Source: a virus (Duplodnaviria > Heunggongvirae > Uroviricota > Caudoviricetes). From it: a stretch of 44,348 nt of DNA. Below, piece by piece: positions 1 through 44,198 of the stretch. Each line of letters starts with the position of its first letter. Positions within the stretch are counted from its first letter, which is position 1. The DNA lies in IMG/VR virus record IMGVR_UViG_2740892273_000003, one strand, 5' to 3'. Below the pieces are notes generated by a model. That model ran no database searches and was not told the origin of the DNA. It worked only from the letters and a program-made list of their open reading frames with translations. Made by a program: the position numbers and the translations under genes.

Positions 1-90
1 GAACAGGAGGGACAGCTGATAGAAACAGAAGCCACTGGAGCACCTCAAAAACACCATCATACACTAAATCAGTAAGTTGGCAGCATCACC
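1..90 (-). mobile_element. insA: IS1 terminal segment (terminal inverted repeat plus first ~12 codons of insA); element continues beyond the window start
   Basis: Reverse complement of 1-90 reads GGTGATGCTGCCAACTTACTGAT... followed by GTG GCT TCT GTT TCT ATC AGC TGT CCC TCC TGT TC (VASVSISCPSC), matching the IS1 end and InsA N-terminus from memory; similarity stops abruptly at 90/91. Confidence 0.75.
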
Positions 91-723
91 AGCCTTCTTG
101 AGGCTACCACCTGTTTTCAGGTGTCATTCAGACGTGATTTGCCCCAGATTGGGAAAGCACGCTTTTTTCTCAGCTATCGTCCTCTTATTTTGCCGTTACA
201 TTTCTTTTTGCATTCTAATGATTAATTTACAATAATAATATCGGTAATTATTGAGTAATAATAAATTAATTATTGCAAATGTAATTTAATTCCATCTTCG
301 CGTTATATTCCAATCTTTAATCTCCGCATGGAACAAGTTGCATGCGTGACTATATTAAGACGACTTATAACCACCAAAACATTTGCTTTGCAAGCAAAAA
401 CAGTGACCATTGACTCTAAGAAAATTCCGATCTATTGTTAGGGTCATCAAAGTTACTTAACAGTATTCCGAAATGAAAATACAAAGCAAGCTAATTGTCT
501 TATTAAACATTATTATTGCATTTATATTATTTGAGCTTTTAGCTCAAAAATTTGGTTTGAGTACATTATTTTAAAGCAAGATAAACAATATCGGGCACTC
601 TAGTTTTTATAATTAACAATTAAACGTCCATAAAATGTTATTTACTTTTCTTCGCTATTGTCATATCTTAATATAGTGGCTTACGCCACTCTACTTTCAT
701 CACATTTTGTACGTTTATGTACT

Positions 724-755
724 CGCCATGAAGCTCTTTCATGGCGATTTTTTAT
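724..755 (+). terminator. Intrinsic terminator on plus strand (CGCCATGAA-gctct-TTCATGGCG then T-run)
   Basis: 9-bp perfect stem, 5-nt loop, followed by ATTTTTTATT; points toward the tfa 3' end, implying a plus-strand transcription unit in the AT-rich 91-720 region. Confidence 0.5.
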
Positions 756-839
756 TCTTAATCCAAGAACATACTCCCTACCTATAGCAAAATCACTTTT
801 TTAACAAAAGAATAACGTATTTAGGTAATCATTACGAAT

Positions 840-1421
840 TTACCCTATAGGTGCTACTGGCCATTCAATATCCGGTGCAGTTGATGTATCAACACGGTTC
901 AGCAACACCCGATACTTTTTCCAAGCTTCCAGCAACAAGGTTTCTTTCTCCGTTGCGATCTCCAGATCCACAGCATCCTGAAGCGGCGCTATATGCTCAC
1001 TGGCTACCTGCATCAGGCTGTTTTTTGTTTCTTCCGCCTCCCGGATCCGGAACAGTTTTTCTGCTTCCGTATCCTTCACCCAGGCTGTGCCGTTCCACTT
1101 CTGAAACTCCCCTTCCGGCGACAACCAAGTAACATTTTCCGGTAACGGACCGAGTTCAGAAATAAATAACGCGTCGCCGGAAGCCACGTCATAAACCGTT
1201 TTACCCCGATGATCTTCAACGAGATGCCACGATGACTCATCACTGTTGAAAACAGCCACGAAACCAGCCGGAATATCTGGCGGTGCAATATCGGTACTGT
1301 TTGCAGGCAGACCTGTATGAGGCGGAATATATGCATCACCTTCACCAATAAATTCATTAGTTCCGGCCAGCAGGTTATAAATTTTTATGGTCCGTGCTTG
1401 TTCACTCATTCTGAATGCCAT
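840..1421 (-). CDS. tfa: Tail fiber assembly protein (lambda Tfa-like, 193 aa)
   Basis: ORF length and position immediately downstream of the side tail fiber gene; start overlaps stf stop. Confidence 0.8.
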
Positions 1422-4400
1422 TATGCGAGCCTCACAATATAGTTAAATGCGATGTTTTTGACGGTGTTTTCCGCGTTACCAGCAGCGTTAACGGTGATGG
1501 TGTGTCCATGTGAACCAATCGCAACAGAGTGCGTATGAGCACCAATACCGACAGTATGCGCGTGTGCACCCGCAGATGCTGCTGTGCCGGACAGTGAGTG
1601 TGTATGGTTTCCTTCTGAAGATGATTTACCTACCCATTGGGAGGTGCCACTGGTTAATGAGCCACTGATACCAACCTGATTAGTCCCGCTAACTTGAGTA
1701 CTCCCTGCCGGAAACATTCCAGTAGGTTGACTCCCGCTATTCGTTCTGGGCCCAGTCTGACTATGTTGGTGGGCCCCAGCTGAACTTGTAGAGCCGCTCA
1801 GACTGTGCGTATGCGCCCCGGTGTTATTCGTGGATTTAGTGCCGTAATCAAACGACGATGTGGTTTTCGTCCCCAAATCCGTACTGGATGCGCTGGCGCT
1901 GTGGGTGTGCGATTTAATGCCATCCTGTTCCTGAGACAATACGGCACGACCACTGGCGGGCTTGCCCTTAATCGTCCAGCCACGCATATCAGGGATCACG
2001 CCTGACGGATAAGCGGCTGCAAGTTTCGGGTAAGCAGATTTGTCAAAAGTCTGCCCCTGCATCAGGGCATAACCAGACGGAACGGTATCTGATGGCCACG
2101 GGATTGGTGCACCGACTGGATAAAACTCTGCAGGAGGATGAGCCGAGGTGTAAAGCTGCGCCCACGGCGACCAGTTTGCGTCGGTCGTATCCCGTCGTGA
2201 ACGAATAAATGCCGGAGCATGAGCACCGCTTGTACCACTCCAGCCGATGAGTAACTCACCTTCGCCAACGGCTGTCATCCCTTTCAGGTGAATGATATTT
2301 CCATACGCTGTTGGATATCCGTTGTTATACACCTCGTATAACTCAAGACCTGCTGCCCCCTGCGTATTGTCTGTCAGCGCGGCTACCCGACCTTTTGAAG
2401 CCAGATTAACTGATGATACTGCTGTTCCACCTGACGGTAGCGCCCCGATCTCTGATGCCGTTGGCTTATTTCTGGAGTTATAGTCCCTTCGCCAGCCAGG
2501 TGAATAATCTGTTCCGTGATTAATATAGGTAAACTGGGCGTTGGTTGTTCCGCCACCGCTGGATGTGGTCGGAGTGGTAATGCGGATCGTCATCGCTGAC
2601 TTTATCCCCATTACTTCAATGACAGCTCCGGCGAGATGAATATTACCGCAGCCAGTATCAGTAATGATTTTATTATTGCCATAAGACCAGGAACCCTTGC
2701 ACATCCAGTATGGATGGTTAAATGCTCCCTGAGAATCCAGCCACTCGATAAACTGTGCAGTCGTCCAGTTTCCTGTTGTTGTGCTTACTGACCCACCGAA
2801 GGCACGGCAGGCACCAATATTTTTCGTAAAGGTGTCTTTGCCAGGGATATCCGCACCGTTCTGATCTTTCTGCAGACGTTTCTCAGCATTGTCATTGGCT
2901 GCTTTTACTGCCTTTGGCGTTGCCGCCAGCGTTTCAGACGTGCTGTTGGTCGCGCTGCTTAGCTGGATTATCCCTTTCTGTGCTGTCGTTGCATCCTGTG
3001 CGGTGTATTTCCCGTTAGCCAGGTCATACGCGGCCTTAACGGCTTTTGGTGTTGCCGCCAGTGACTCGGAAGTGCTGTTAGTCGCACTACTGAGCTGTAC
3101 TATCCCCTTTTTCGTCGTGCTCGCATCCTCAAGCGCCACGGCGGATGCAATATCCTCTGCCCGTTTTGCCGCTGTCTCAGCGCGCGTTGCTGCAGATTCC
3201 GCCGTACTTTTGCTCTGAGCTGCTGCCGTCGCACTACCAGCAGCCTCTGTCGCCTTCGTGGATGCCGTCGTGGCGCTGCCCTTCGCTGCTGACGCCTGTC
3301 TGGTCGCCTCATCTTTTGAAGCAGACGCCGATGATGCCGATGACGCCGCCGAACTGGCGGACGATGCGGCAGCCGTTTTTGAGGATTCTGCACGGGTTTC
3401 CGACGCTTTCGCGTTCGTTTCGGATGTCTTCGCTGCGGAAGCTGACCTCGCTGCTGCCGTGGCCTGCTCAGTGGCTTCGCCAGCCTTCGTTGTGGCTGTT
3501 GAAGCGGATGATGCGGCGCTTTCTGCCGATTTTCCGGCGGCGGTGGCACTGGCTGAGGCCTGCCCGGCACTTGTTGACGCGGCGCTGGCAGACGACGCAG
3601 CCGCTGTTTTTGAGCCTGCCGCAGCTGAGGCACTCTGTCCCGCTGCCGTTTCAGAAGACCTGGCGTTCGTCTCGGACGTTTTGGCCGCCTTCGCAGAATT
3701 TGCAGCCGCCGTCGCCGAGGAAGCTGCGCTACTGGCGCTTGATGATGCGTTCGTTTCTGATGATTTTGCCGCCTCTTTTGAAGCCGACGCATCCCGGGCT
3801 GAGGTGGCAGCTTCTGACGCTTTCGTGGTCGCGGTGGATGCAGAAGTGGCTGCTGATTGTTGTGACGCTGCCGCATTCGTTTCTAACGTTTTCGCCGCAC
3901 CGGCACTGGTAGCCGCCGCGCTTTTTGAGGACTCTGCAGCGGCAGCACTTTTTGAGGCTTCAGTGGCCTTTGTTGATGCCGTTCCTGCGCTGGAAGACGC
4001 TGACTGAGCCGACGAAGCGGCCTGTCCGGCTGACGTGCTGGCTGCACGTGCTGAATCTGCAGCATCAGTCGCATGGGTTGCCGCCTCACGGGCTGATGTG
4101 CTGGCATCGCTGGCTGATTTCTTCGCGGCTGCCGTGTTCTGTGCCACCGCGGACGCGTTACGCGCCACCTCTTCCACCATCAGCTCAAAACGGCGCAGTG
4201 CCTCCGGACGGGCATCATCCTCCGTCATGGCACCGAGAAAATCATTCAGCGTACCGGGTCGGGAATCTTCATACACGGTGATGGTCCCGGCATGTGACGG
4301 CGGGAATCCTTCCACCAACAGAATAACGCTGTACTGACCGTACTCAACGTCCATGCTGTAACGCCCGGCTTCATCCGGATTTTCTGAGGCCAGCGTGTTC

Positions 4401-24294: not shown

Positions 24295-24310
24295 TGCGAC
24301 CACGGTCGCA
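24295..24310. repeat. sopC-like centromere palindrome copy 1 (TGCGACCACGGTCGCA)
   Basis: 16-bp inverted repeat with 7-bp arms TGCGACC/GGTCGCA; one of five copies in the window. Confidence 0.6.
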
Positions 24311-24514: not shown

Positions 24515-24530
24515 TGCGACCACGGTCGCA
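24515..24530. repeat. sopC-like centromere palindrome copy 2 (TGCGACCACGGTCGCA)
   Basis: Identical 18-mer GTGCGACCACGGTCGCAC to copy 1, about 220 bp away in the same orientation. Confidence 0.6.
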
Positions 24531-26232: not shown

Positions 26233-27354
26233 TTACTCAAATAACTTTTTCACTTCATCAACTGTCTGAAGATAACGTTCACCCTCAATCTCAATACCGA
26301 TTGCCTGACGACCTAACTTCAGCGCGGCTTTAATAGTAGAGCCTGATCCCATAAAGAAATCGGCAACGATATCTCCGGGGCGGGAACTACTTTTTATAAT
26401 ATGTTCCATCATCGCTGCAGGTTTTTCACATGGGTGCTTGCCAGGATAATATTGCACAGGAGGAAACTCCCATACATCGGTATAAGGTACATCAGCAGTA
26501 ACATGAAATGGGCGGCGCAAATTTTCATACTGAGCCTTCAAATCATCATACTGCTTCTTTACTTCCTCATAACGCAATTTCAGATCGCTATAACGCTTTT
26601 CATGTTCTGAATAATCAACATTAAAAGGATATGGACACGGGACACCGAGTGAATCTGCCTTCCTGCGAAATAATTCGCATAGTTTATTAAAATCACTTAA
26701 TGATGGAAGCCGCCACTGCGAATAAGAAAACCAGTGCGAACACATCTGCTTTCCTGTTGCTGAATTAATGTCTGCGGCTGATATATCTAACTGACGGCGA
26801 GCCAGCGAAAAAGCATCAATTAGTGGAGAAAAAATATTTTTTCTTAAATCTGCACATTTTGAAGCATAACCTGACTGACCTTTAGCATAACCTGACGCGC
26901 CGTAATGCTCTGCAAATAATATTCTTTCAGTGGCAGGAAAATAAGCCCTTAAACTTTCTTTATGACAACCGCGCCACATACCACTGGGTTTAGCCCAAAT
27001 GATATGGTTCAGAACATTGAAACGGTCGCGAGTTAATAATTCAATTTTTGACGCAAGGCGAGAGCCGGTAAACATATACAGGCTGCCATTAGGGGCCAAT
27101 ATCCGCCAAAATTCTGCCAAAAATTCATCAATCCACCCCAAAAAGTCAGCATCGCTATCCCACTGGTTATCCCATGCGTTAGCCTTTACGCCGAAGTATG
27201 GTGGGTCTGTTGCAATCAAATTGACCGAGTTATCAGGGATGGTTTTGATAAATTGCAGAGAATCTGCGCAAACGAGTTGCGCGCCATGAATATTAGTGGT
27301 TTTGAACATAGCTATTATTTTTTTGCCTGGGTAAGCTAACCCGGCGATGCGCAT
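26233..27354 (-). CDS. Orphan DNA amino-methyltransferase (N6-adenine or N4-cytosine); true start may be the internal MFKTT
   Basis: DPPY motif near the N-terminus (LIATDPPYFG) and FxGxG AdoMet motif near the C-terminus (DFFMGSGST); no adjacent restriction endonuclease gene. Confidence 0.75.
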   Translation of the reverse strand: MRIAGLAYPGKKIIAMFKTTNIHGAQLVCADSLQFIKTIPDNSVNLIATDPPYFGVKANAWDNQWDSDADFLGWIDEFLAEFWRILAPNGSLYMFTGSRLASKIELLTRDRFNVLNHIIWAKPSGMWRGCHKESLRAYFPATERILFAEHYGASGYAKGQSGYASKCADLRKNIFSPLIDAFSLARRQLDISAADINSATGKQMCSHWFSYSQWRLPSLSDFNKLCELFRRKADSLGVPCPYPFNVDYSEHEKRYSDLKLRYEEVKKQYDDLKAQYENLRRPFHVTADVPYTDVWEFPPVQYYPGKHPCEKPAAMMEHIIKSSSRPGDIVADFFMGSGSTIKAALKLGRQAIGIEIEGERYLQTVDEVKKLFE

Positions 27355-27554: not shown

Positions 27555-27570
27555 TGCGACCGTGGTCGCA
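27555..27570. repeat. sopC-like centromere palindrome copy 3 (TGCGACCGTGGTCGCA, opposite orientation)
   Basis: Same arms as copies 1 and 2 with the central dinucleotide GT instead of AC; extended palindrome CTGTGCGACCGTGGTCGCACAG. Confidence 0.6.
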
Positions 27571-27817: not shown

Positions 27818-28057
27818 TCAATCTTGAAACTGGAAATCAACATCAGCCATAAAGCGGTTCAACTCAGCCAGTTTTGGCCCCATAGTCCCAACTAAGCGAC
27901 CAGCCAGTCGGTCTGCCAGGTTGGTACTGTTGAAACCATATTCCTTTTCGAAACGTTCAACCTTCTGCCACAACTCATACAGTTCGTTAGCTATCTCCGC
28001 AACGTCGTCGCGCATTTTTTCGTTACCTTGATAATTCATAATATCCTCCAAATTCAT
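27818..28057 (-). CDS. Hypothetical acidic small protein (79 aa)
   Basis: ORF in an operon with the 75-aa gene; divergent from the toxin-antitoxin pair. Confidence 0.45.
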   Translation of the reverse strand: MNLEDIMNYQGNEKMRDDVAEIANELYELWQKVERFEKEYGFNSTNLADRLAGRLVGTMGPKLAELNRFMADVDFQFQD

Positions 28058-29649: not shown

Positions 29650-30180
29650 TTACTTAACCCAATTAACTACACCGCCAGCGGCCACAACCGCCCTTTCACA
29701 GTCACGCTCATATCTCAAAGGTTGAAATACACCATCAATAAAATATTTATCTCCACCAAACGCTGCAGGAAGTGAAACAGAAAACTGAATATGACCATCC
29801 GGAGTTACCGGAGAGTTGCCAGCCAGTCTACGCAACACAGCCTTAACGGCCTCAATACGGTCATCATCAACTTTTTCTACAATATTGGAATTTAAATACT
29901 TCGAAGCCTTGCTATGCCAATCGCTGGTTTTAGGGTCTTGTCCATCCATCAAACGCCAAGCTTCAGCGATTAACTCATAGCCAGTGACAGTGGCTTCCTG
30001 CGCATCACCAATAAGTCGTGTAATCTCTCTTTCAAGCCGACCGCCTAGCTCTGTTTTAGTGCAATGTTCTGACCAATCGCCAGCCTCAAGCAGCGCGAGA
30101 ATGCTTAAAATATCGTCCAATAGAACGGTAGTATTATCGACTTCCTTCTGAAACTCACCGGCTACTGATTTATGCATCAT
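29650..30180 (-). CDS. Hypothetical protein (176 aa)
   Basis: ORF in the early-right operon; contains a PVTPDGHIQFSVSLP segment related to the PVTPDGWISCSERMP segment of the neighbouring DUF551-like protein. Confidence 0.5.
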   Translation of the reverse strand: MMHKSVAGEFQKEVDNTTVLLDDILSILALLEAGDWSEHCTKTELGGRLEREITRLIGDAQEATVTGYELIAEAWRLMDGQDPKTSDWHSKASKYLNSNIVEKVDDDRIEAVKAVLRRLAGNSPVTPDGHIQFSVSLPAAFGGDKYFIDGVFQPLRYERDCERAVVAAGGVVNWVK

Positions 30181-30479
30181 TCGTCATCCTCATCTGAGTC
30201 ATCCTCATCACAGGATGAGAGTAGTGGGTTAGTCATTCGCCCTACTTGAGTGGCGTAGCCACGCCGACAGAGATTGCGCAGCACACTGTATATTTCGAAC
30301 ATCTCGGTTCGTTCATCACCAACATCAAGCTCAGATGCTATAGCGTGGCATTCAGTCGCGAGAGCCGATATTTTCTGAAATAACTCTGCTTTATTCACTC
30401 TTCGACTCCTGCGGCGGTTCTGGTAGTGGCATCCAGTGAGTTGCTTGCTCAATACCATTACCCGGCTTAATCGTTGCAT
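30177..30479 (-). CDS. Hypothetical acidic protein (100 aa as given; start uncertain)
   Basis: ORF overlapping the 3' end of the upstream gene by ~89 nt; poly-Asp/Glu C-terminus; true start likely internal. Confidence 0.3.
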   Translation of the reverse strand: MQRLSRVMVLSKQLTGCHYQNRRRSRRVNKAELFQKISALATECHAIASELDVGDERTEMFEIYSVLRNLCRRGYATQVGRMTNPLLSSCDEDDSDEDDE

Positions 30480-32672: not shown

Positions 32673-32973
32673 TTTCTTGTGCGACCACGGTCGCACCCTC
32701 TCTGATTTCCAAGTAACGCTTAATCCAAAGATTTTCTATATGCTTATTACCTGGCTGATTTGATAAATACCAATCGGCAATTACAGACTGCTTATTACTA
32801 TCTGGTCGTGTCCTGTAACCACAAGTTGGACACCAGATAACATATTCATTTCTTACCCCCGAATACCTTAATTCTGGCTTCGACGGTTTCCTGAACATAA
32901 CTTGTTTACAAAGGCAGAATGGCACTTCCTGCCCGATGGCGTTTGATGATTTCACTGCGCTTCTCCGCCGCAT
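32653..32973 (-). CDS. Hypothetical protein with zinc-ribbon-like motifs (106 aa as given)
   Basis: CxC...CxxC spacing (FCLCK ... WCPTCGY); start uncertain (internal MFRKP also possible). Confidence 0.4.
   Translation of the reverse strand: MRRRSAVKSSNAIGQEVPFCLCKQVMFRKPSKPELRYSGVRNEYVIWCPTCGYRTRPDSNKQSVIADWYLSNQPGNKHIENLWIKRYLEIREGATVVAQENENNAI
32680..32695. repeat. sopC-like centromere palindrome copy 4 (TGCGACCACGGTCGCA)
   Basis: Same 16-bp palindrome in the early-right operon, at the junction of two small ORFs. Confidence 0.6.
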
Positions 32974-34760: not shown

Positions 34761-37700
34761 ATGACATTAAACGATTTCTATGCGGATCGCTTTGGCAGCG
34801 ATCCGTTCTCGCTAATTGAAGCAGCACGGGATGAACTAACCGAGCTGGCACAGATGGCTGGTATCAACTGGTCTGCCTGTTCCGACAACATCCAACTCAA
34901 CCCTCGCGGGGGTGTTGAGCGTTACTCTTCATACAATAAAACATCCCCAGAAGCTCTCGAAAAGAGCCTCAAAGGACGCGTAGAAATTTACTCCCGGCTG
35001 GAACACAGCAAAGGGATTGATTACCCGTTCATTAACTTCGTCCATAAAGGCAGCGATGCTGGCTCATGGAGCGGTTTCTCCTTCCTGTTTTCTGAATATC
35101 GCCGTGAGCAACAACGGAATAATGCGACCGTGGTCGCACAACCGGAAGAAGAACGGGCAAGAATAGAACGTCAGGCCGAAGCACGTCGTCGCCGTGAAGA
35201 ACAAAAACGAATTAATGACCTGAAAAACAACCAAATGGACCATGAACGTTTGCTGGGATGGCTGGCATTCCACAGTGCTTGGGAACATGCTCCTGCAGAA
35301 GACGGCTCATGGCCATATGCGATTAAAAAAGGTATTCGTGACGTTTTTAATTCGTGTGATGTGCGTCGCGTGACCAGTCACGACAGCGCAAAATGGAGCA
35401 GGGGGCCAACCACGTATATGGCTATCCCTCTGGCTCACCTGGACGGTCGTTACGATGGTCGTATTGTTGGTTGGCAGCGAATCGACAAACAAGGTGGAAA
35501 ATACCAGACCAGCGCCGTAACCAGCGGCGATTTCGTCGGTGCCTGCTTTGTTATCGGTGAGCTGAAAGGGGCGCAAAACATCGCTGTTACAGAAGGTTTT
35601 GCTACTGGTGCATCCATCTGGCTTGCCACGAAAAAAGATAAACGCTTTGACGCTGTGGTTGTCGCTGTATCCGCTAACAACATGGTTCATGTTGTGGAAC
35701 AACTGGTAAACATGTACCCGGCGGCAAAAATCACCTGCGCACTGGATAATGACCGGAAATCAGCTACAGAAGGAAAAGGGAATACCGGCCTGCGGACTGG
35801 CTATGAAATCTTATCGAAATTCAACGATGTCCGCTGCGTCTATCCAACTTTTGAAGACGATCCGCAAATGGAGTGCAGTGACTTCAACGACCTGCACAAA
35901 CTACGTGGACTTCGTGAAACAGCACGTCAACTGTTTGCAACTGCAAACCGCCTGAAAACTGGCACTGATTTGCTATCTCTGACGCTCAACCGCCTGAAGA
36001 CAATTAAGCGGGATAACCGTCGTACTTTTGCCAAAGAGCTGCTGAGAGCAGTGGATATTGGCATGCTAACCTGTCCGGTTCCTAACAGTCCGTCAGACTT
36101 ATTTAACATGTTCTGCATCGTCCTGCGTGAAATTGGGCTGGAAAATATCTATCGCGCTACGGTAAAAGACCACATTGCCCGTCGCCTGAATAAAAAGTGC
36201 CGTATTGCCCAGGCTCCGCGCTCATTCAGCGAACGAATAACTGATCCCAATAAACGTCCTCAACATATCACCTATAAGCGTTTTGAAACTTCGGTAATGA
36301 CCGATGACGTCCTGAAGTATGTGCAATCACTACAGGGGATAGTCATCGTTCGTGCTGGTATGGGTTCCGGCAAATCTACTGGATTGTTACGACCTTTAAT
36401 GCATAGCTCAGAACGTGGTATCTCTGTTGCTCACCGTGTTTCCCTTATTGGTGGCCTGTGGGAAATGATGACAGAAGGAAAAGGTGTAAAAGCCGATATC
36501 CTGCACTATCAGGACCCTGGCTATCAGGAAATGGCTCCATACGCCAGTAAACTGACCATCTGCATAAACTCGATTGTTAAAAACTGCTGGCAACCATTGA
36601 TGCGCCAGCACGACTATTTTGGCTTTGACGAGGCCACGCAAGGGCTACGTGCCGTTCTTTCCGGTCGGGCTATGGAAAACCCGGTGGCTGTATTCAATAC
36701 GTTAATTGACGCGCTGGCCAGAACGGAACAACACCCAATAATGGTGGATGCTGATGCGAACGATCTGCTGGTTGACCTGGCTGAACTGGCTATGAAACGC
36801 CGTGAAGAACTAGGTTTACCGGCATGGCTGCAGATCCACGTAATTGAATTACCTGTTGATGTTCGCAACCGCGAAACAGGTGAGCCAATCCGGGTTTTTT
36901 ATACAGAAAAAGATCGCATTATGACCGAGGTGGTGAAAGCTGTATCGAATGGCGAAAAAATCATGTTGGCCACCGACAGCTCCACCTTTGCAGAAGATGT
37001 GACCGCCACCCTGAGAATGCATTTTCCTGGTAAGAAATTTCTGTGTGTAAACCAGAAAAACAAACCAGAGCCAGAAGTTGAAGCATTTACCAATCAACCG
37101 AAAAAGATGGTCAAAAAATACGACGGCCTGATTTATAGCCCGTCTATTTCATCCGGTGTGTCGATTGAGCAAAAACATTTTGACCGTCATTTCGGCATGT
37201 TCTGTGGTGAAGTTGTACCCAGCGACGCAGTGCAAATGCTACGCCGCGACCGTACAGCAAAAGAATTTATTATCGGCTTTGATAAAGCTCGCGCAAAACG
37301 TGAAACTGACCCGCAAAAAATAGAACGAGCATTCGCCCAGGCATTGCTTGCTACCGCAGGCATGAACGGTGAACTGACGGATGTCGTTTTCGATGGCGAC
37401 CGTATATCAATGGGGGTGGCCAATACCGACTTTACCAGGATGAAAATTAAAGCAGCCGCAATTGAAGCGTCTGCGCGTAACGACTACGCCAGCAACATGA
37501 TCTGCATCATGCACAGCGACGGTTATAAGGTATCGCCGCTGGCCACCGATTATGCTGCGAATGATATCGGTAAAGATCTGCGTAAAGAAGCGCGGGATAT
37601 TGTGTGGGAACAGACACTGGATCTGCATCTCAATACAGAAACTCCACAAGAATCAGAGCGTGAAGAACTGCTAAAAAAACGCGCGCTGACGCTTGAAGAA

Positions 37701-38756
37701 CAAGCAAAACTTGTCCGCTGGGATATTGAGAACGAACTGAAACTACCGGTTGAAGAAGGCACGCTGAAATTCTATTTCGATGGTGCTCGAGACAAAGTTC
37801 GCCGCTATGAAACAATGCTTTTAGATGAGGTAACAGCTCGTCGTTACGACCGGGAAGAAGCAGCCATCAATTTTACCTACGCATACCGTCAGGCGGGACA
37901 GTGGCAATATTTTGTAGTGACCGCGATGACTCGCGAGCAGGCTGATGATGTCTTTAAAACTAAATTCCCTGGAATAATCGACTACAAGGTAAAAGCTACT
38001 CCTACTGTTGAAGTCGGGGCGCGCGGTTTCTATGCGCTTAAATCAGCAACTCTCCGGCAGTACTTTATCGACTGCGGTATCAACCCTGAGACTATGACCG
38101 GCGAGGCGACTCAGGAGCGTCTCAAATTCGCTCGAGATAACCTCATGACAGCCGAACGCCGTGACCTGTTGAATAACGTTCTGCACATTGGTGGTTTTAT
38201 GACGCCAAAAGGGAAGCCTAAAGTGCCGGAAGCGTTGTTTAAAAACATTTGCGACTCTCTTGGCCTTAAAACAGGTAAACGTCGCGGCAGAGACGGCGAT
38301 AAGCGTCCAACCTTGCGTTTTGTTGAGCCTGAATCAGCGGCATTTATGCTGGATATTCTTGTTCAGCGTCAGAAAGATGGCCTAACCCTAAAAACGCGTA
38401 AAGCCGAGAAGACAGCCATCGAAATGGATCGCGATTTGGATCTCAATATATATATGGATGATAAAACGCGATCCACAAACGAGCAGGTTCAAAACGCCCC
38501 TCATTCAGTAATTTCTGAGGCTTTGGCCGTATTGCCGGTGGCTGTTCCTGAGTCCTGGGCGATGAGTGCGCTTTCCGGTGAGGAGCTGGCCACTATGTCA
38601 TCATGGTCATCAGCCAGCATAGCTATGACGTTTGCATCTCTGTATCTCACAGAGTTCATGGATCACTTGTCCAGCAATGAATTGCGGCGGTTACGAGAAT
38701 ACATTACCGGGAATAGCTCATGCAGCTACGAAGAGCAGGGCGCTTTCTATGGGTAA
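34761..38756 (+). CDS. repA: Replication protein RepA, multidomain primase-helicase (1331 aa, N15 RepA-like)
   Basis: Toprim-like primase motifs (NIAVTEGFATGASI; CALDNDRK), Walker A (GMGSGKST) and Walker B (YFGFDEAT) in the central region; size close to the ~1.3 kaa N15 RepA as recalled. Confidence 0.8.
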   Translation: MTLNDFYADRFGSDPFSLIEAARDELTELAQMAGINWSACSDNIQLNPRGGVERYSSYNKTSPEALEKSLKGRVEIYSRLEHSKGIDYPFINFVHKGSDAGSWSGFSFLFSEYRREQQRNNATVVAQPEEERARIERQAEARRRREEQKRINDLKNNQMDHERLLGWLAFHSAWEHAPAEDGSWPYAIKKGIRDVFNSCDVRRVTSHDSAKWSRGPTTYMAIPLAHLDGRYDGRIVGWQRIDKQGGKYQTSAVTSGDFVGACFVIGELKGAQNIAVTEGFATGASIWLATKKDKRFDAVVVAVSANNMVHVVEQLVNMYPAAKITCALDNDRKSATEGKGNTGLRTGYEILSKFNDVRCVYPTFEDDPQMECSDFNDLHKLRGLRETARQLFATANRLKTGTDLLSLTLNRLKTIKRDNRRTFAKELLRAVDIGMLTCPVPNSPSDLFNMFCIVLREIGLENIYRATVKDHIARRLNKKCRIAQAPRSFSERITDPNKRPQHITYKRFETSVMTDDVLKYVQSLQGIVIVRAGMGSGKSTGLLRPLMHSSERGISVAHRVSLIGGLWEMMTEGKGVKADILHYQDPGYQEMAPYASKLTICINSIVKNCWQPLMRQHDYFGFDEATQGLRAVLSGRAMENPVAVFNTLIDALARTEQHPIMVDADANDLLVDLAELAMKRREELGLPAWLQIHVIELPVDVRNRETGEPIRVFYTEKDRIMTEVVKAVSNGEKIMLATDSSTFAEDVTATLRMHFPGKKFLCVNQKNKPEPEVEAFTNQPKKMVKKYDGLIYSPSISSGVSIEQKHFDRHFGMFCGEVVPSDAVQMLRRDRTAKEFIIGFDKARAKRETDPQKIERAFAQALLATAGMNGELTDVVFDGDRISMGVANTDFTRMKIKAAAIEASARNDYASNMICIMHSDGYKVSPLATDYAANDIGKDLRKEARDIVWEQTLDLHLNTETPQESEREELLKKRALTLEEQAKLVRWDIENELKLPVEEGTLKFYFDGARDKVRRYETMLLDEVTARRYDREEAAINFTYAYRQAGQWQYFVVTAMTREQADDVFKTKFPGIIDYKVKATPTVEVGARGFYALKSATLRQYFIDCGINPETMTGEATQERLKFARDNLMTAERRDLLNNVLHIGGFMTPKGKPKVPEALFKNICDSLGLKTGKRRGRDGDKRPTLRFVEPESAAFMLDILVQRQKDGLTLKTRKAEKTAIEMDRDLDLNIYMDDKTRSTNEQVQNAPHSVISEALAVLPVAVPESWAMSALSGEELATMSSWSSASIAMTFASLYLTEFMDHLSSNELRRLREYITGNSSCSYEEQGAFYG
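35123..35138. repeat. sopC-like centromere palindrome copy 5 (TGCGACCGTGGTCGCA), inside repA
   Basis: Same palindrome embedded in the repA coding sequence (encodes NATVVAQ). Confidence 0.6.
38424..38476. other. Candidate replication origin inside the repA 3' region
   Basis: Imperfect inverted repeats GGATCGCGATTT / AAACGCGATCC containing GATC sites, flanking an ATATATATAT tract. Confidence 0.35.
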
Positions 38757-38940
38757 TCAGTGGATATTATCTTTGTGTCTCTTGCTTTGTGTGTTCCAGC
38801 AATGGTTTTGGTTCATAGATCGAAAGTCTCACAAGGAAAACATGAAGGCCAGGAAGGCGATGTTTCGTGGTGAACAACTCGCGCAGACTTATCGTATGTG
38901 GAAACGCTTCTATCGTGATTTTTCGGTGAACGGGGAGTAA
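38749..38940 (+). CDS. Small membrane protein (63 aa) translationally coupled to repA
   Basis: ATG overlaps the repA stop (TATGGGTAA); hydrophobic N-terminus ILSLCLLLCVFQQWFWFI. Confidence 0.4.
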   Translation: MGNQWILSLCLLLCVFQQWFWFIDRKSHKENMKARKAMFRGEQLAQTYRMWKRFYRDFSVNGE

Positions 38941-38944
38941 AAAT

Positions 38945-39271
38945 ATGTCTACTACTGCATTTTTGGACAAACTTGATTACCGTCAGCTGCAGTTCTGCCG
39001 GGATGAATGCGATCGACGCATTAAGGCTATCCAGGAGGAAGAAAAAAAGGTCGCCTGGGCTGTAACAGATCGTGGCCTTATCTTTGGCTGGTTCCGTACG
39101 GAGGATTACCTGAAAGCAGTGGAATTATTGGCGCGTAAGGCTGCTGAGCGTTGGGAACGAGCCGACAAGGAAAACCCGGAGACGAAGTATGAACTGAATC
39201 TCTACATCGAGGGCAACCGTCTACCATTGTCAGAGTATAACGCTTTGTTTGCTGATGGTGAGTGGGGTTAA
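38945..39271 (+). CDS. Hypothetical protein (108 aa)
   Basis: ORF in an operon downstream of repA. Confidence 0.45.
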   Translation: MSTTAFLDKLDYRQLQFCRDECDRRIKAIQEEEKKVAWAVTDRGLIFGWFRTEDYLKAVELLARKAAERWERADKENPETKYELNLYIEGNRLPLSEYNALFADGEWG

Positions 39272-39273
39272 AA

Positions 39274-39669
39274 ATGGCTGTTCAATCATACAAATACGAA
39301 TCCCCTTTGGATAAGGGATACATTCGTATCAAGTTAAGTCGTTCTCAACATAAGGCTATTTTTAAGGTAAGGAAAATTCGCATATTGGATGCGTATGCGT
39401 ATTACTACAACGGTGAAAATGTTGTTGTTGAACACTTTCTTGCACGATGGTTTGTAGCTCTGATTTTTGTCCCTCTCCTGTTAATTGGTACTTTTGTGGA
39501 TGGTTTTCCTAGTACATGGCGGGAGATAAAGAAAGGCCTATTCCCGCGTAAGTACGGCAGATTTTCGCAAGATAGCTGGCGAGTTATACCTGGTAAACAT
39601 TCTGTGGATGAGCAGCCGATTGTTGATTACTGGTTGAAGCGTATGGCTGATGCTAAAAAAGTTGATTGA
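39274..39669 (+). CDS. Hypothetical membrane protein (about 131 aa), AT-rich
   Basis: One central TM segment WFVALIFVPLLLIGTFV; GC content visibly lower than flanking genes. Confidence 0.45.
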   Translation: MAVQSYKYESPLDKGYIRIKLSRSQHKAIFKVRKIRILDAYAYYYNGENVVVEHFLARWFVALIFVPLLLIGTFVDGFPSTWREIKKGLFPRKYGRFSQDSWRVIPGKHSVDEQPIVDYWLKRMADAKKVD

Positions 39670-39758
39670 ATAGTGATGACTGTTCAAGTTAAACCGTTCT
39701 CGGCATATTTTATTTAATGGAATAACATATTATTAATCAAATAGGTTAAGTTAATATT

Positions 39759-40571
39759 ATGCGTAACAAAAAAACAACAGCTTTATTACTCTCTATCTTG
39801 TTATTATCTGGATGCACTTATCAATATGATAATAAGGCATCAACGGACGTTGAGTATAAATTCGAAAAAGAAAAAAGAGTACCTATCAACTCTGTTGGTG
39901 ATTTTAGCAGCAAAATACTCACAGGTAAGGAATTTAATAGAATTATTGCATCAAAGATAGATGATGGTTCATGGCGTGGATATGTCGTTCACTCATTAAC
40001 ATACGCGCCATACAACAACGTTTTAACATCTCAAGGTTTGTCTATCCCTAGAAGTATCACATACTCAGGAACATATCTTAACCGTGATTTTGTTGAGAAT
40101 AGCGGTAGTGATAGCGTGATAACATCTCGAGATATGTCTGGATGGTATGGTTTTCATGTCGATTCCTCTGAAATAACAAAGCATGGAAGCTATGTTGGTG
40201 CTAATGCTTTTGGAATATCTGCTGATGTAGAAGTGTTAAATACTTTAGGTGCCGAAATTATCTTTGGTAGTACACAAATAAATGAAGGGAACCCTGAAAC
40301 AATATGGGCAGATATTGATATAAAAGGACAAATACCAAAAGATGTTAATGTAAAAGACCTTAGAATTGAATATTTAGCAAAGATAAATGGGTTAAGCAGT
40401 AATCATATTGATATAACATCACCTACTATTTTTAACCCGTCAGATATGAGCCATAAAACTCAGGTTTTTATGGGTGAGTTATTAGCCGCGCGCCTAATAA
40501 ATATTAAAACGGGAGAAATTTATCCAGTACAGCTAGAGTGGGTGTTCCGTTCGCGTGAGGCTTTCTTATAA
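39759..40571 (+). CDS. Lipoprotein (270 aa), AT-rich moron-like gene
   Basis: Signal peptide with lipobox LLLSGC; markedly AT-rich coding sequence; followed by a perfect hairpin GAACAAT-aac-ATTGTTC. Confidence 0.55.
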   Translation: MRNKKTTALLLSILLLSGCTYQYDNKASTDVEYKFEKEKRVPINSVGDFSSKILTGKEFNRIIASKIDDGSWRGYVVHSLTYAPYNNVLTSQGLSIPRSITYSGTYLNRDFVENSGSDSVITSRDMSGWYGFHVDSSEITKHGSYVGANAFGISADVEVLNTLGAEIIFGSTQINEGNPETIWADIDIKGQIPKDVNVKDLRIEYLAKINGLSSNHIDITSPTIFNPSDMSHKTQVFMGELLAARLINIKTGEIYPVQLEWVFRSREAFL

Positions 40572-40632
40572 CGGAACAATAACATTGTTCATGTTCTGAT
40601 CGTTTGTTCAAGCAAACTATAAAAACACCTGT

Positions 40633-41346: not shown

Positions 41347-42125
41347 GCGCGTTAGCAGTCTTTTCCTTTCAGGAAGAGCATCAGGTTCGTGTAGTGATGA
41401 TTAACGGTGAGCCGTGGTTTGTGGCTAAGGATGTATGTGATGCTTTAAGACTCGTTAATTCCCGGAAGGCGCTAATGTCTCTGGATGAGGATGAAAAGGG
41501 TGTAACTTTAAGTTACACCCCTGGCGGAGAGCAAAAGCTAAATATTATTTCAGAGTCAGGTCTATACACCCTGATCCTCCGCTGCCGTGACGCGGTGAAG
41601 CAAGGCACAACAGCTTGGCGGTTTCGCAAATGGGTAACGAACGAAGTCTTGCCCTCTATTCGCAAAAATGGAGAGTACGTTTACATCGAGCCTGAGCCAA
41701 TGCGAGCAGCGGAGCCGTTGAACTGGAGGCAGAAAGAGTATCTGCGAGGGCTGATTAACGATATAGCACAAAGTTTTCAGTACCGAAATGCCTGGATTAG
41801 CGGTGTATGGTTAGCTTTGCGTCGGGCGTGTCGTAATCCATCCCCGAACCCCATAACGGTTGATGATTTGCCAGCAATTACGGCAGAACTGCGCCGGATT
41901 TTGACGGCTGCTGAGTCGGCATTGGGGAACATGCGCACGTATGAACGAGAGTTGTTGCGTGATGTTGTTCGTGGGGGTAGGCGGAGTATGTCGTGTGGTG
42001 ATTTACCCATCACCGATATTAACTCTGATCTGGAAAAGGCGTTACCCGCGCATTTTGAACTGGCAGTTCAAAAACTTGAGCAGTTATCCGCGCAGCTAAA
42101 GCCAGCAGAAATCACCAATAAATAG
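41343..42125 (+). CDS. ant: Antirepressor with Bro-N domain (260 aa)
   Basis: N-terminal FSFQEEHQVRVVMINGEPWFVAKDVCDALRL...SESGLYTLILR...KWVTNEVLPSIRKNG matches the Bro-N domain pattern. Confidence 0.7.
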   Translation: MSALAVFSFQEEHQVRVVMINGEPWFVAKDVCDALRLVNSRKALMSLDEDEKGVTLSYTPGGEQKLNIISESGLYTLILRCRDAVKQGTTAWRFRKWVTNEVLPSIRKNGEYVYIEPEPMRAAEPLNWRQKEYLRGLINDIAQSFQYRNAWISGVWLALRRACRNPSPNPITVDDLPAITAELRRILTAAESALGNMRTYERELLRDVVRGGRRSMSCGDLPITDINSDLEKALPAHFELAVQKLEQLSAQLKPAEITNK

Positions 42126-42147
42126 GGTTGACCAGCCCGAATTTATG

Positions 42148-42164
42148 CCCTTCTTAGAGAAGGG
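42148..42164 (+). terminator. Hairpin CCCTTCT-tag-AGAAGGG just after ant
   Basis: Perfect 7-bp stem; no T-run, so terminator function is uncertain. Confidence 0.3.
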
Positions 42165-42261
42165 AAGCCTCGCAGTCGGGGCGGTGATGTCTGTGGTTGC
42201 AGCCGCGTTTCCTCCGTTACTTCTGCCCTTTGCAGGGGGCAGGCGAGGTAGGTCACACAAC

Positions 42262-42296: not shown

Positions 42297-44198
42297 TTAA
42301 CCGAAATATGTCAGCCATGCTAACTGCATTGCTGACATGGGGCTGTTTGCACTGCCGGACCACGCATAATTCTGGCCATTATAATGAAACTCAACAACGT
42401 ATGAGCCATCACCAATATTTCTCACCGGCTTAAATACCGGCTTAGATACAGGCGAAGAAGGTGCAGGCGGTTGCTGTTCTTCTACGCTATCTTCCTCTTC
42501 CTCTTCCTCTTCCTCTATCTCAATTTCGTCGTCATCCAGATCGTCATCCTCTGATAATTCATCCGCCAGTTCAGGTATTGCTTCCAGTTCTTCTTCGTCA
42601 GGCATAACGATTTCTGGAGTATCTATTTTCAGTTGCCATTGTCCGTTTTCGCCAACAAATTGCCCCAGAGCATCAGCAGCAAATTCCAGGTATCGACTAA
42701 TCATTGTTGGGCTAAATTTGAACGCTCTTAGAGTGCTGTTCGTGATTTTTATAGAGGGGTCCTGCTCTACCAGCTGCTTAACTGTGTTATGCAGACGAAC
42801 CCCGGCATCTCCTCTGGCGAATCCAGGCATTTCGTCATCAAGCTGCTGCAATGCTTCCAGCCTGGTATTTTCGTTTCCAGTATTTGGCCTCCATGTCTTT
42901 GAGAAGTTGGCCAGCTTGAATTGCTTATAGTGTAATTGAGTGTTTTCATCGTCATGGCCTAAAATTTCCATAAAGAAAACATCTTCATCTACGTTTTTCC
43001 AACGAGGATCTACGCGGAAAAACATTTCATACGCAATACGGGCATAAATAGCACGACTATCTTTATAAACACGGCGGTCATCTTTGAAAAATGATTTAAC
43101 CCACGGGTTAAAAGCCTTTGCTAATATGGCATTAATACGTCCGTTTTCAGAGCGTGTGTCGTTATCTCCATAACCTTTAACGACATCATCAAAATCAGAT
43201 GCTGCTGGGCATGAGCGAAGTACATTTATTAAATAAACAAATGTTTTTGCTTCGCATAATGTATATATTTTTCTGGTTATATCATCAGAAGTTCTTTTTT
43301 TAGCTTGGCCTAAAAAATCAACGGTATACTTACCAGAAACAGTAAATGTACCTTGATACATAATCTCAATCATTCGTCTTCCTGACAATGCAGCAAGTGC
43401 AAATGCCAAAGGAGCCATACCTGAACGAGTGTTTAGATTATTTAATGTAGCAGGGCTATTTATAATATCGTAAATAGCTTGCATATATTTAGGGTAATCA
43501 ATGACCACCACGTTACGTTTCTTATTGTGCAGAACGTCCGCCCATCGTTGCTGGATAGATGCACGTTCGGCAGGGCTTAGTTGAAGATGATAGAGAATCT
43601 CATGGTTAACTTTTAGCTGATTCAACTCCTCAAGTAAGGCAGATCCTTGCTGTAGTAATTTATATAAATAATCGCGCTTATCTTTCCAGTTATCGCTGGT
43701 TAAATCAGAAATGGCGAATTGCCACTCTTTATATTTATTTGATAATTTCAATAACTTATTATGACTTTTGTTATCGCCAATTCTGATATTAGATAAATCT
43801 TCTGATAGAGGGAGAATTAATTTTAATTTTGCCTGTAAAGCTGACATTCTCTGGCGAATATCGGCAGCAGGTAGAGAAAGCCATGACAATAGCTCCTCAT
43901 TATATAAAGGATACTTTTCAGATAGGCGATGTATATTTTTTTCAAAGCTATGATGAAGTTTATCATCAAACCGTTTTCTGGCCCTGCTCATATAGGCATT
44001 GAATGTGTTGGCTGTAATTCTTTTTTCTAATCCTTTCCCCCTAAACTTTCGCTTGTCATTAAATAATGCATTTTTAAATTTTAATGCAACAGCCTTTATT
44101 TTTTTTGTTTTCTCCCCTTGAGGACGGTCAGAGTTATCTATTGACTCAACATCGCTAACAAGTGAGTTTATTAATTCACCGATTTTTACTTTGCTCAT
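42297..44198 (-). CDS. telN: Protelomerase (telomere resolvase), TelN-like (633 aa)
   Basis: N-terminus MSKVKIGELIN..., internal blocks such as RITANTFNAYMSRARKRFDD and WRPN..ENTRL, and a C-terminal acidic tract match the N15 TelN protein as recalled; length is close to the 631-aa N15 protein. Confidence 0.8.
   Translation of the reverse strand: MSKVKIGELINSLVSDVESIDNSDRPQGEKTKKIKAVALKFKNALFNDKRKFRGKGLEKRITANTFNAYMSRARKRFDDKLHHSFEKNIHRLSEKYPLYNEELLSWLSLPAADIRQRMSALQAKLKLILPLSEDLSNIRIGDNKSHNKLLKLSNKYKEWQFAISDLTSDNWKDKRDYLYKLLQQGSALLEELNQLKVNHEILYHLQLSPAERASIQQRWADVLHNKKRNVVVIDYPKYMQAIYDIINSPATLNNLNTRSGMAPLAFALAALSGRRMIEIMYQGTFTVSGKYTVDFLGQAKKRTSDDITRKIYTLCEAKTFVYLINVLRSCPAASDFDDVVKGYGDNDTRSENGRINAILAKAFNPWVKSFFKDDRRVYKDSRAIYARIAYEMFFRVDPRWKNVDEDVFFMEILGHDDENTQLHYKQFKLANFSKTWRPNTGNENTRLEALQQLDDEMPGFARGDAGVRLHNTVKQLVEQDPSIKITNSTLRAFKFSPTMISRYLEFAADALGQFVGENGQWQLKIDTPEIVMPDEEELEAIPELADELSEDDDLDDDEIEIEEEEEEEEDSVEEQQPPAPSSPVSKPVFKPVRNIGDGSYVVEFHYNGQNYAWSGSANSPMSAMQLAWLTYFG

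Follow-up and report, generated by a model that had tools for sequence, protein, structure and literature searches.

Does the replication gene of an N15-like phage-plasmid carry its own origin of replication? We asked this of a viral DNA of 44,348 nucleotides (Caudoviricetes; IMG/VR record IMGVR_UViG_2740892273_000003), the whole of which is called the window below. Its repA gene contains, in the 3' part, inverted repeats around an AT tract that an initial annotation had proposed as an internal origin. The proposal appears to be well founded, since the segment is homologous to repeats annotated in phage N15 and bears the signatures of a cis-acting DNA element throughout the RepA family. We conclude that positions 38425-38475 are probably the core of a RepA-dependent replication origin, a homologue of the intragenic origin of N15 and PY54.

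A dyad-symmetric element within repA

The element reads TGGATCGCGATTTGGATCTCAATATATATATGGATGATAAAACGCGATCCA, which divides into TGGATCGCGATTT GGATCTCAATATATATATGGATGAT AAAACGCGATCCA. It lies within the repA open reading frame (ORF), 306 nt before the ORF end, and encodes RepA residues ~1222-1239, a poorly conserved linker. The gene and the parts of the element are as follows.

34761-38756, plus strand: repA, an ORF of 1331 amino acids for a replication initiator of the primase (Toprim) plus helicase/origin-binding type; contains the element
38425-38475: 51-bp dyad-symmetric element, proposed origin core, with two inverted arms, a GATC in each, and an AT-rich spacer between them
38425-38437: left arm TGGATCGCGATTT, from the repeat search of the window
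38427-38430: outer GATC 1 (Dam site), invariant in the family
38438-38462: AT-rich spacer, 28% G+C, proposed DNA-unwinding element; holds the (AT)5 tract ATATATATAT at 38447-38456
38439-38442: inner GATC, whose position and number differ among clades
38463-38475: right arm AAAACGCGATCCA, from the repeat search and from complementarity in the family
38470-38473: outer GATC 2 (Dam site), likewise invariant, at a distance of exactly 43 nt from GATC 1 in all loci

The repeat search gave ungapped arms of 13 nt that are complementary at 12/13 positions across a spacer of 25 nt, the perfect part of the inverted repeat being 9 nt long (TGGATCGCG/CGCGATCCA). The strings first described, GGATCGCGATTT (38426-38437), AAACGCGATCC (38464-38474) and ATATATATAT (38447-38456), are all present. 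Arms written in this way, of 12 and 11 nt, need a 1-nt bulge in order to pair. Over the whole 4-kb repA ORF, no stretch forms a less stable duplex than the AT core, whether 15, 20, 30 or 40 nt are considered, and the segment as single-stranded DNA folds at -13.1 kcal/mol (z = -3.5 against shuffles).

Within this one DNA molecule, the inverted repeat on its own is nothing special: the window holds 45 perfect 9-nt inverted repeats with a loop of at most 40 nt (8 +/- 4 in Markov simulations). A GATC-N39-GATC is expected 0.64 times by chance, and its spacing is not significant alone in a single window. Nowhere else in the 44 kb do three GATC sites fall within 60 nt, as they do at 38427, 38439 and 38470, and it is the co-location of the inverted repeat, the least stable duplex and the only GATC triplet cluster that is unusual. 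That the element is more than a chance arrangement is decided by the comparative evidence and not by such single-window statistics.

Homology to the annotated repeats of N15

In the N15 record U63085.1, three 11-nt repeat_region features (cgaagtggatc, cgatttggatc and the inverted gatccaaaac) fall exactly on the bases homologous to the element. The same three units are found in the window, as two adjacent 11-mers, CGAAATGGATC and CGATTTGGATC, and an inverted copy, GATCCACAAAC. The N15 block aligned to the element reads GTGGATCGCGATTTGGATCTAAATATAGATATA...CGATCCAAAAC. Homology of the element to this region of N15, phiKO2 and PY54 was recovered with blastn, with tblastn and with codon and DNA alignments. 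As expected of an N15/PY54-type origin, the element lies in the 3' part of an N15-type primase-helicase repA on a protelomerase replicon, and an AT-rich, easily melted segment is flanked by repeats. Mardanov and Ravin reportedly placed the N15 origin in the 3' part of repA in 2006. A replication start of N15 within repA is also reported in PMC2847241. The record of Escherichia phage PhiR46_1 (PV340565.1), to which the 3' part of the window repA is 99.9% identical, carries no annotation at the element position.

The repA coding sequence of U63085.1 (locus L001, 1-2025) stops inside the origin block, with 1228 amino acids against 1324 in AF064539, and its tblastn match comes in two pieces; the short repA is probably due to a frameshift error in this early sequence.

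Selection on the DNA of the element across the RepA family

Nine named phages and 72 IMG/VR loci of 37-100% amino-acid identity supplied the 3' 1.65 kb of repA, and from these a non-redundant set of 37 sequences was drawn with a pairwise nucleotide difference of at least 5%. Over the 81 nt around the element, the 37 homologues align with zero gaps, and GATC is invariant in columns 18-21 and 61-64 of this alignment (A2). Moreover, none of the 72 IMG/VR loci and none of the 6 genome loci checked lacks GATC-N39-GATC at the homologous place. The family consensus at the spacer centre is TATAnAT, the T of column 40 being invariant and that of column 38 at least 90% conserved. Three to four GATC sites occur in the homologous 70 nt of 36/37 relatives, and two in the remaining one (L030), which amounts to 54 per kb against 3.8 per kb elsewhere in the loci. 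Indeed, the densest GATC window of each ~2.8-kb locus is centred exactly on the element in 30/37 cases and within 30 nt of it in 35/37. What the family shares is the pair of outer GATC sites at their fixed spacing, the dyad symmetry and the TATAnAT core. Of what had been noticed at the outset, the dyad symmetry holds across the family, whereas the specific CGCG arm sequence and the (AT)5 run do not.

The conservation is of DNA and not of protein. In 558 distant pairs, synonymous codon identity at 38412-38454 rises to 0.68-0.76 (region mean 0.43) and third-position identity to 0.55 (0.37), whereas amino-acid identity falls to 0.23-0.33 (0.49). Nowhere else in the 1.65-kb region does nucleotide identity exceed protein identity by so much, and no comparable DNA-level signal was found in the other stretches of the repA 3' 1.65 kb. 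The codons themselves tell the same story. Codon 1223 is GAT in 37/37, though GAT and GAC are used about equally elsewhere, and the next codon always begins with C, yet it specifies four amino acids (H, R, L or P). Codon 1237 alternates between Arg and Gly but always reads NGA (CGA 18, GGA 18, AGA 1, all rare codons) and is followed by TCN in 37/37, while codon 1230 is the rare Ile codon ATA in 30/37, against a background of 18%. The second GATC is even read in different frames, TTG GAT CTA in N15 and GGA TCT in PY54, with its place kept. Because synonymous identity peaks where protein identity is lowest and rare codons are fixed, the element is under DNA-level, not protein-level, selection across the RepA family.

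Covariation of the arms

The arms keep their symmetry while changing their sequence. About a fixed centre at 38450, arm complementarity ranges from 59 to 100% of the 37 homologues per position, and most arm positions outside GATC show two or three different base pairs across the family. In alignment A2, 86% of the cells are paired, compared with 25-45% when the partner is slid by 1-3 columns, and changes on both sides were seen in 8/13 arm pairs. The covariation score was 0.346, against 0.126 in shuffles, of which 0/500 reached it, and strict Watson-Crick counts were 13.6/24, against 3.7-7.1 for shifted centres. Strict Watson-Crick pairs account for ~83% of the cells and G-U adds only ~4%. Representative arms are these.

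Window: left TGGATCGCGATTT, right AAAACGCGATCCA
Klebsiella phages: left GTGGATCACGATTT, right AAATCGCGATCCAC
PY54: left GATCTAACTTG, right CAAGTTGGATC
Erwinia/Rouxiella clade: left TGATCCAGATCT, right AGATCTGGATCA

Copies of the module in non-coding DNA

The window and N15 have the intragenic copy only. Two distant clades carry a second whole 51-nt copy in non-coding DNA, 15-30 nt past the repA stop: one clade consists of L072 and L073, the other of L077-L083 together with an Erwinia and a Rouxiella locus (L089, a contig of Erwinia tasmaniensis, and L091, plasmid pSP2 of Rouxiella badensis). L073 has a third copy ~100 nt past the repA stop. Their locations are given below.

L072: 2206-2252
L073: 2205-2251 and 2292-2338
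L077, L079, L083 and L089: 2261-2307
L078: 2252-2298
L081 and L091: 2239-2285

The extra copies lie ~290-380 nt from the intragenic one and keep the GATC-N39-GATC frame, with arms complementary at 10-13/13 positions in the second copies and at 9/13 in the third copy of L073. The first two copies within one genome differ at 1-10 of 51 positions. Since the extra copies stand in non-coding DNA, the element is therefore a discrete DNA module for which the coding context is not needed. Altogether, the alignments show that the element exists, that it is selected as DNA, that its dyad co-varies, that it is also found as a free-standing module, and that it is homologous to the N15 repeats.

Alternative explanations

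The comparative evidence shows a functional DNA element and not which function it serves. The element could thus be a cis-acting site of the replicon other than the initiation site, such as a site where RepA regulates copy number or causes handcuffing, an autoregulatory site or a Dam/SeqA switch, with unwinding and priming taking place elsewhere; the extra copies 300 nt apart in some clades do resemble iteron or control-site arrangements. We consider such a role unlikely, because the element holds the most easily melted stretch of repA, stands at the place homologous to the N15 repeats, has no rival of comparable DNA-level signal in the 3' 1.65 kb, and belongs to a gene within which the origin is reported to lie (PMC2847241). 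The three or more direct repeats of an iteron-type origin, as in lambda, F, P1 and R6K, are absent from the window, which has two adjacent 11-mers and one inverted copy without a tandem array; some distant clades have 2-3 copies of the whole 51-nt module ~300 nt apart. No sigma-70-like promoter was found in 38200-39000. Much less probable still is a stem-loop of the repA mRNA that would affect how the 3' part of the message is translated or processed, or how stable it is. The arms do co-vary like an RNA helix, the folded strand is more stable than shuffles (z = -3.5), and the copies past the stop could still be in the transcript. However, an RNA stem-loop would not require two invariant GATC sites, a constant distance of 43 nt between them or a TATAnAT within a loop of 25 nt, the paired cells are overwhelmingly strict Watson-Crick with few G-U, no Rfam family was matched (only a chance microRNA match, E = 0.77), and the hairpin lacks a T-run terminator.

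That a chance inverted repeat next to an AT run, or conservation due to protein coding alone, could account for the element is scarcely credible. Inverted repeats of its class are common in the window and a single GATC-N39-GATC is not far from chance expectation, but protein identity is lowest where nucleotide and synonymous identity are highest, rare codons are fixed, amino acids vary under invariant GATC, the motif keeps its place while the reading frame shifts, and copies exist in non-coding DNA. As far as sequence analysis goes, synonymous identity, codon detail and the non-coding copies refute this explanation. We give equally little credence to a SopB/ParB-bound centromere, or partition, site. 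It is true that the element is an inverted repeat and that, according to PMC2847241, a centromere site of N15 lies within repA, but the centromere-type palindromes of the window differ in sequence from the element. The palindrome TGCGACCNNGGTCGCA (TGCGACC-NN-GGTCGCA) is absent from the element and has five copies elsewhere, so that this identity was rejected; the search pattern gave 6 matches in all in the window, against 1.5 expected by chance. The copies of the form TGCGACC(AC/GT)GGTCGCA, which resemble the centromere sites of F sopC and N15, are located as follows.

24295-24310: centromere-type palindrome
24515-24530: centromere-type palindrome
27555-27570: centromere-type palindrome
32680-32695: centromere-type palindrome
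35123-35138: centromere-type palindrome in the 5' part of repA

The last of these is 3.3 kb from the element, and its position matches the statement quoted above of an N15 centromere site within repA.

Several points weigh against the element being the origin core. The cumulative GC-skew minimum is near 33-34 kb, at a switch in transcription direction, and not at 38.4 kb; since an origin 4 kb away in a phage of 46 kb is beyond the resolution of this measure, we hold it to be uninformative rather than contrary. For PY54, the origin that Ziegelin et al. (2005; J Bacteriol 187:3445) reportedly described in the 3' portion of repA measures 212 bp; if this is the minimal origin, the 51-bp core may be needed without being enough by itself. 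The covariation of the arms would fit a hairpin or a cruciform as well as a symmetric protein site. With respect to Dam, the hosts found are all Dam-positive Enterobacterales and thus provide no natural control: a scan of genome contigs for relatives in Dam-negative hosts returned Enterobacterales only, together with two probable contaminants (Limoniibacter and Microbacterium). The window also has a methylase gene, but its product, a PF01555 enzyme of the N6/N4 type, says nothing on GATC.

26233-27354, minus strand: DNA methyltransferase of 373 amino acids, N6_N4_Mtase family (PF01555, E = 1e-46), named 'DNA adenine methylase' in PhiR46_1

A possible mechanism

We infer that the element is the initiation site and that RepA binds its arms and melts its spacer; any role of Dam or SeqA is likewise inferred. 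RepA, a fused primase-helicase initiator, would recognise the two inverted arms, each with its GATC, and open the AT-rich spacer that they enclose, where the duplex is less stable than anywhere else in the gene. After loading itself as helicase, RepA would prime with its own primase domain, and replication would proceed bidirectionally toward the hairpin telomeres, which TelN would resolve. Mardanov and Ravin (2006) and Ziegelin et al. (2005) reportedly found the 3' end of repA to be dispensable for RepA acting in trans. RepA would be made from DNA bearing its own site and hence be delivered next to it, which fits the reported cis preference of N15 RepA, cited in PMC3155836 as an initiator acting only in cis.

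Adenine methylation may tune the firing of the origin, either because methylated DNA would melt more easily or because SeqA would occupy the hemimethylated sites after firing. This is suggested by the invariant pair of Dam sites 43 bp apart, that is ~four helical turns, and by the inner GATC sites. The GATC cluster lies in or next to the proposed unwinding region, as in origins of the Dam/SeqA type, and the spacings of 12, 31 and 43 nt place the sites roughly on one helix face, an arrangement that SeqA prefers (PMC2691817). Methylation control of the element is suggested in this way as a hypothesis only. In a bolder version, which we advance tentatively, the origin of the N15/PY54 family would be a portable 51-bp module, methylation-gated and DnaA-independent, in an otherwise GATC-avoiding genome. 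One could imagine, though we rather doubt it, that full methylation eases melting or RepA binding whereas hemimethylation recruits SeqA and blocks re-initiation. We also speculate, with similar reserve, that the arms outside GATC set the specificity between RepA and its origin and co-evolve with each RepA. No DnaA box (TTATCCACA-like, at most 1 mismatch) was found in 37500-39300, the nearest being at 39306.

GATC is depleted in the window, with 96 sites against 167.6 +/- 12.3 in dinucleotide-preserving shuffles. For a phage whose hosts are Dam-positive, this under-representation is surprising, and it stands in contrast to the cluster at the element. In the repA coding sequence, two GATC sites 15 nt apart (34785-34788 and 34800-34803) fall among the first 45 nt and could form a second Dam-sensitive spot near the repA start.

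The replicon and its RepA

The identity to PhiR46_1, the protelomerase, RepA and the five Sop-type palindromes mark the window as an N15-like linear telomere phage-plasmid. The protelomerase gene is the following.

42297-44198, minus strand: protelomerase TelN

Over most of the window, identity to PhiR46_1 is 95-99%. Positions 1-4154, 39685-40593 and 41426-42235 have no match in that phage, and the remainder is 85-99% identical. The unmatched stretches look like module replacements, affecting the tail-fibre end and the group of small genes that separates repA from telN. Compared with the PhiR46_1 record, the window stops 52 bases before the telL end is reached.

RepA matches Pfam Toprim_3 and Herpes_ori_bp and belongs to PHROG 4913 'replication' (E = 0). 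Its residues 525-1034 (window 36333-37862) match NCBIfam CyRepA1 with 259 bits (cutoff 200), and E. coli copies are named by PGAP 'plasmid replication protein, CyRepA1 family'. It is homologous to N15 gp37 and to PY54 RepA.

The same 300 nt are present in 17/5426 complete E. coli genomes, always on plasmids of ~46 kb or more. The repA 3' region occurs twice in the E. coli plasmids NZ_CP019258.1 (75 kb), NZ_CP126957.1 (68 kb) and NZ_LT906558.1 (61.5 kb), the usual size being 46 kb, and IMG/VR contigs such as 3300045988_113976 also have it twice, in opposite orientation. Such double records may be artefacts of assembly in which hairpin-ended linear plasmids were joined head to head, or they may be true dimers. 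Close relatives of the window RepA were also found in a 52-kb contig labelled Limoniibacter endophyticus (L086, 81%) and a 712-nt contig labelled Microbacterium barkeri (L090, 96%); these labels, of an alphaproteobacterium and an actinobacterium, are likely due to contamination.

Significance and comparison with known systems

If the element is the origin core, the comparative data narrow the origin from "within repA", or from the 212 bp reported for PY54, to a 51-bp module, and so offer a base-precise and testable definition of the origin core for linear phage-plasmids that are common in Klebsiella and E. coli. The N15-like group also underlies the pJAZZ linear cloning vectors. The data reveal which positions could be recoded without changing RepA, and they raise the concrete question of whether Dam or SeqA controls copy number in these replicons. 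More generally, the element illustrates cleanly how a cis element can be overprinted on a coding linker and be recognised from synonymous-site conservation alone.

Origins inside an initiator gene are also found in unrelated systems. The lambda ori in gene O likewise lies within the coding sequence of the initiator, in a constraint-tolerant part of the protein, with initiator-binding repeats beside an AT-rich region, as textbooks describe. In contrast to the single GATC dyad of the window, it has four direct 19-bp iterons and depends on the host DnaB, brought by the P protein, whereas the window initiator carries its own primase and helicase; the two share no sequence or protein homology. The oriV of repABC plasmids is located within the initiator gene repC, with an A+T-rich stretch near or in it, and its initiator works poorly in trans (PMC3155836). 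The initiator families are unrelated, and no GATC dyad is described for repABC. The element shares with E. coli oriC and P1 oriR a grouping of Dam sites within or next to an AT-rich melting region (PMC2691817 and, for the rest, textbook knowledge) and GATC spacings that are compatible with SeqA on one helix face (PMC2691817). Unlike these origins, it has no DnaA box (at most 1 mismatch) within ~800 nt and no tandem arrays of 13-mers or 7-mers.

The closest likeness is to N15 and PY54. N15 has the same initiator architecture and the same type of replicon, with TelN and Sop sites, and the element corresponds to N15 coordinates 30143-30193, a homologous position at which GTGGATCGCGATTTGGATCT-AATATA is common almost base for base. 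The RepA proteins, however, are only ~59-66% identical in the region, the right arm is CCCTCGATCCAAA in N15 and AAAACGCGATCCA in the window, so that the N15 dyad is shorter, and the core is ATATAGATATA instead of (AT)5. In PY54 the corresponding position, 27861-27911, is occupied by the same 51-nt module, with GATC-N39-GATC and with dyad arms GATCTAACTTG/CAAGTTGGATC around the core ATATAGATATA. PY54 differs in having four GATC sites against three in the window, the second of them in another reading frame, and in its arms, unrelated in sequence outside GATC; the RepA proteins are ~39-45% identical. From these comparisons, the element is of a kind already known from N15 and PY54, a homologue in another N15-like phage. 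What may go beyond the published maps is that the module is defined to the base, as 51 nt with co-varying arms and two invariant GATC sites spaced by 43 nt, and that distant clades have extra non-coding copies.

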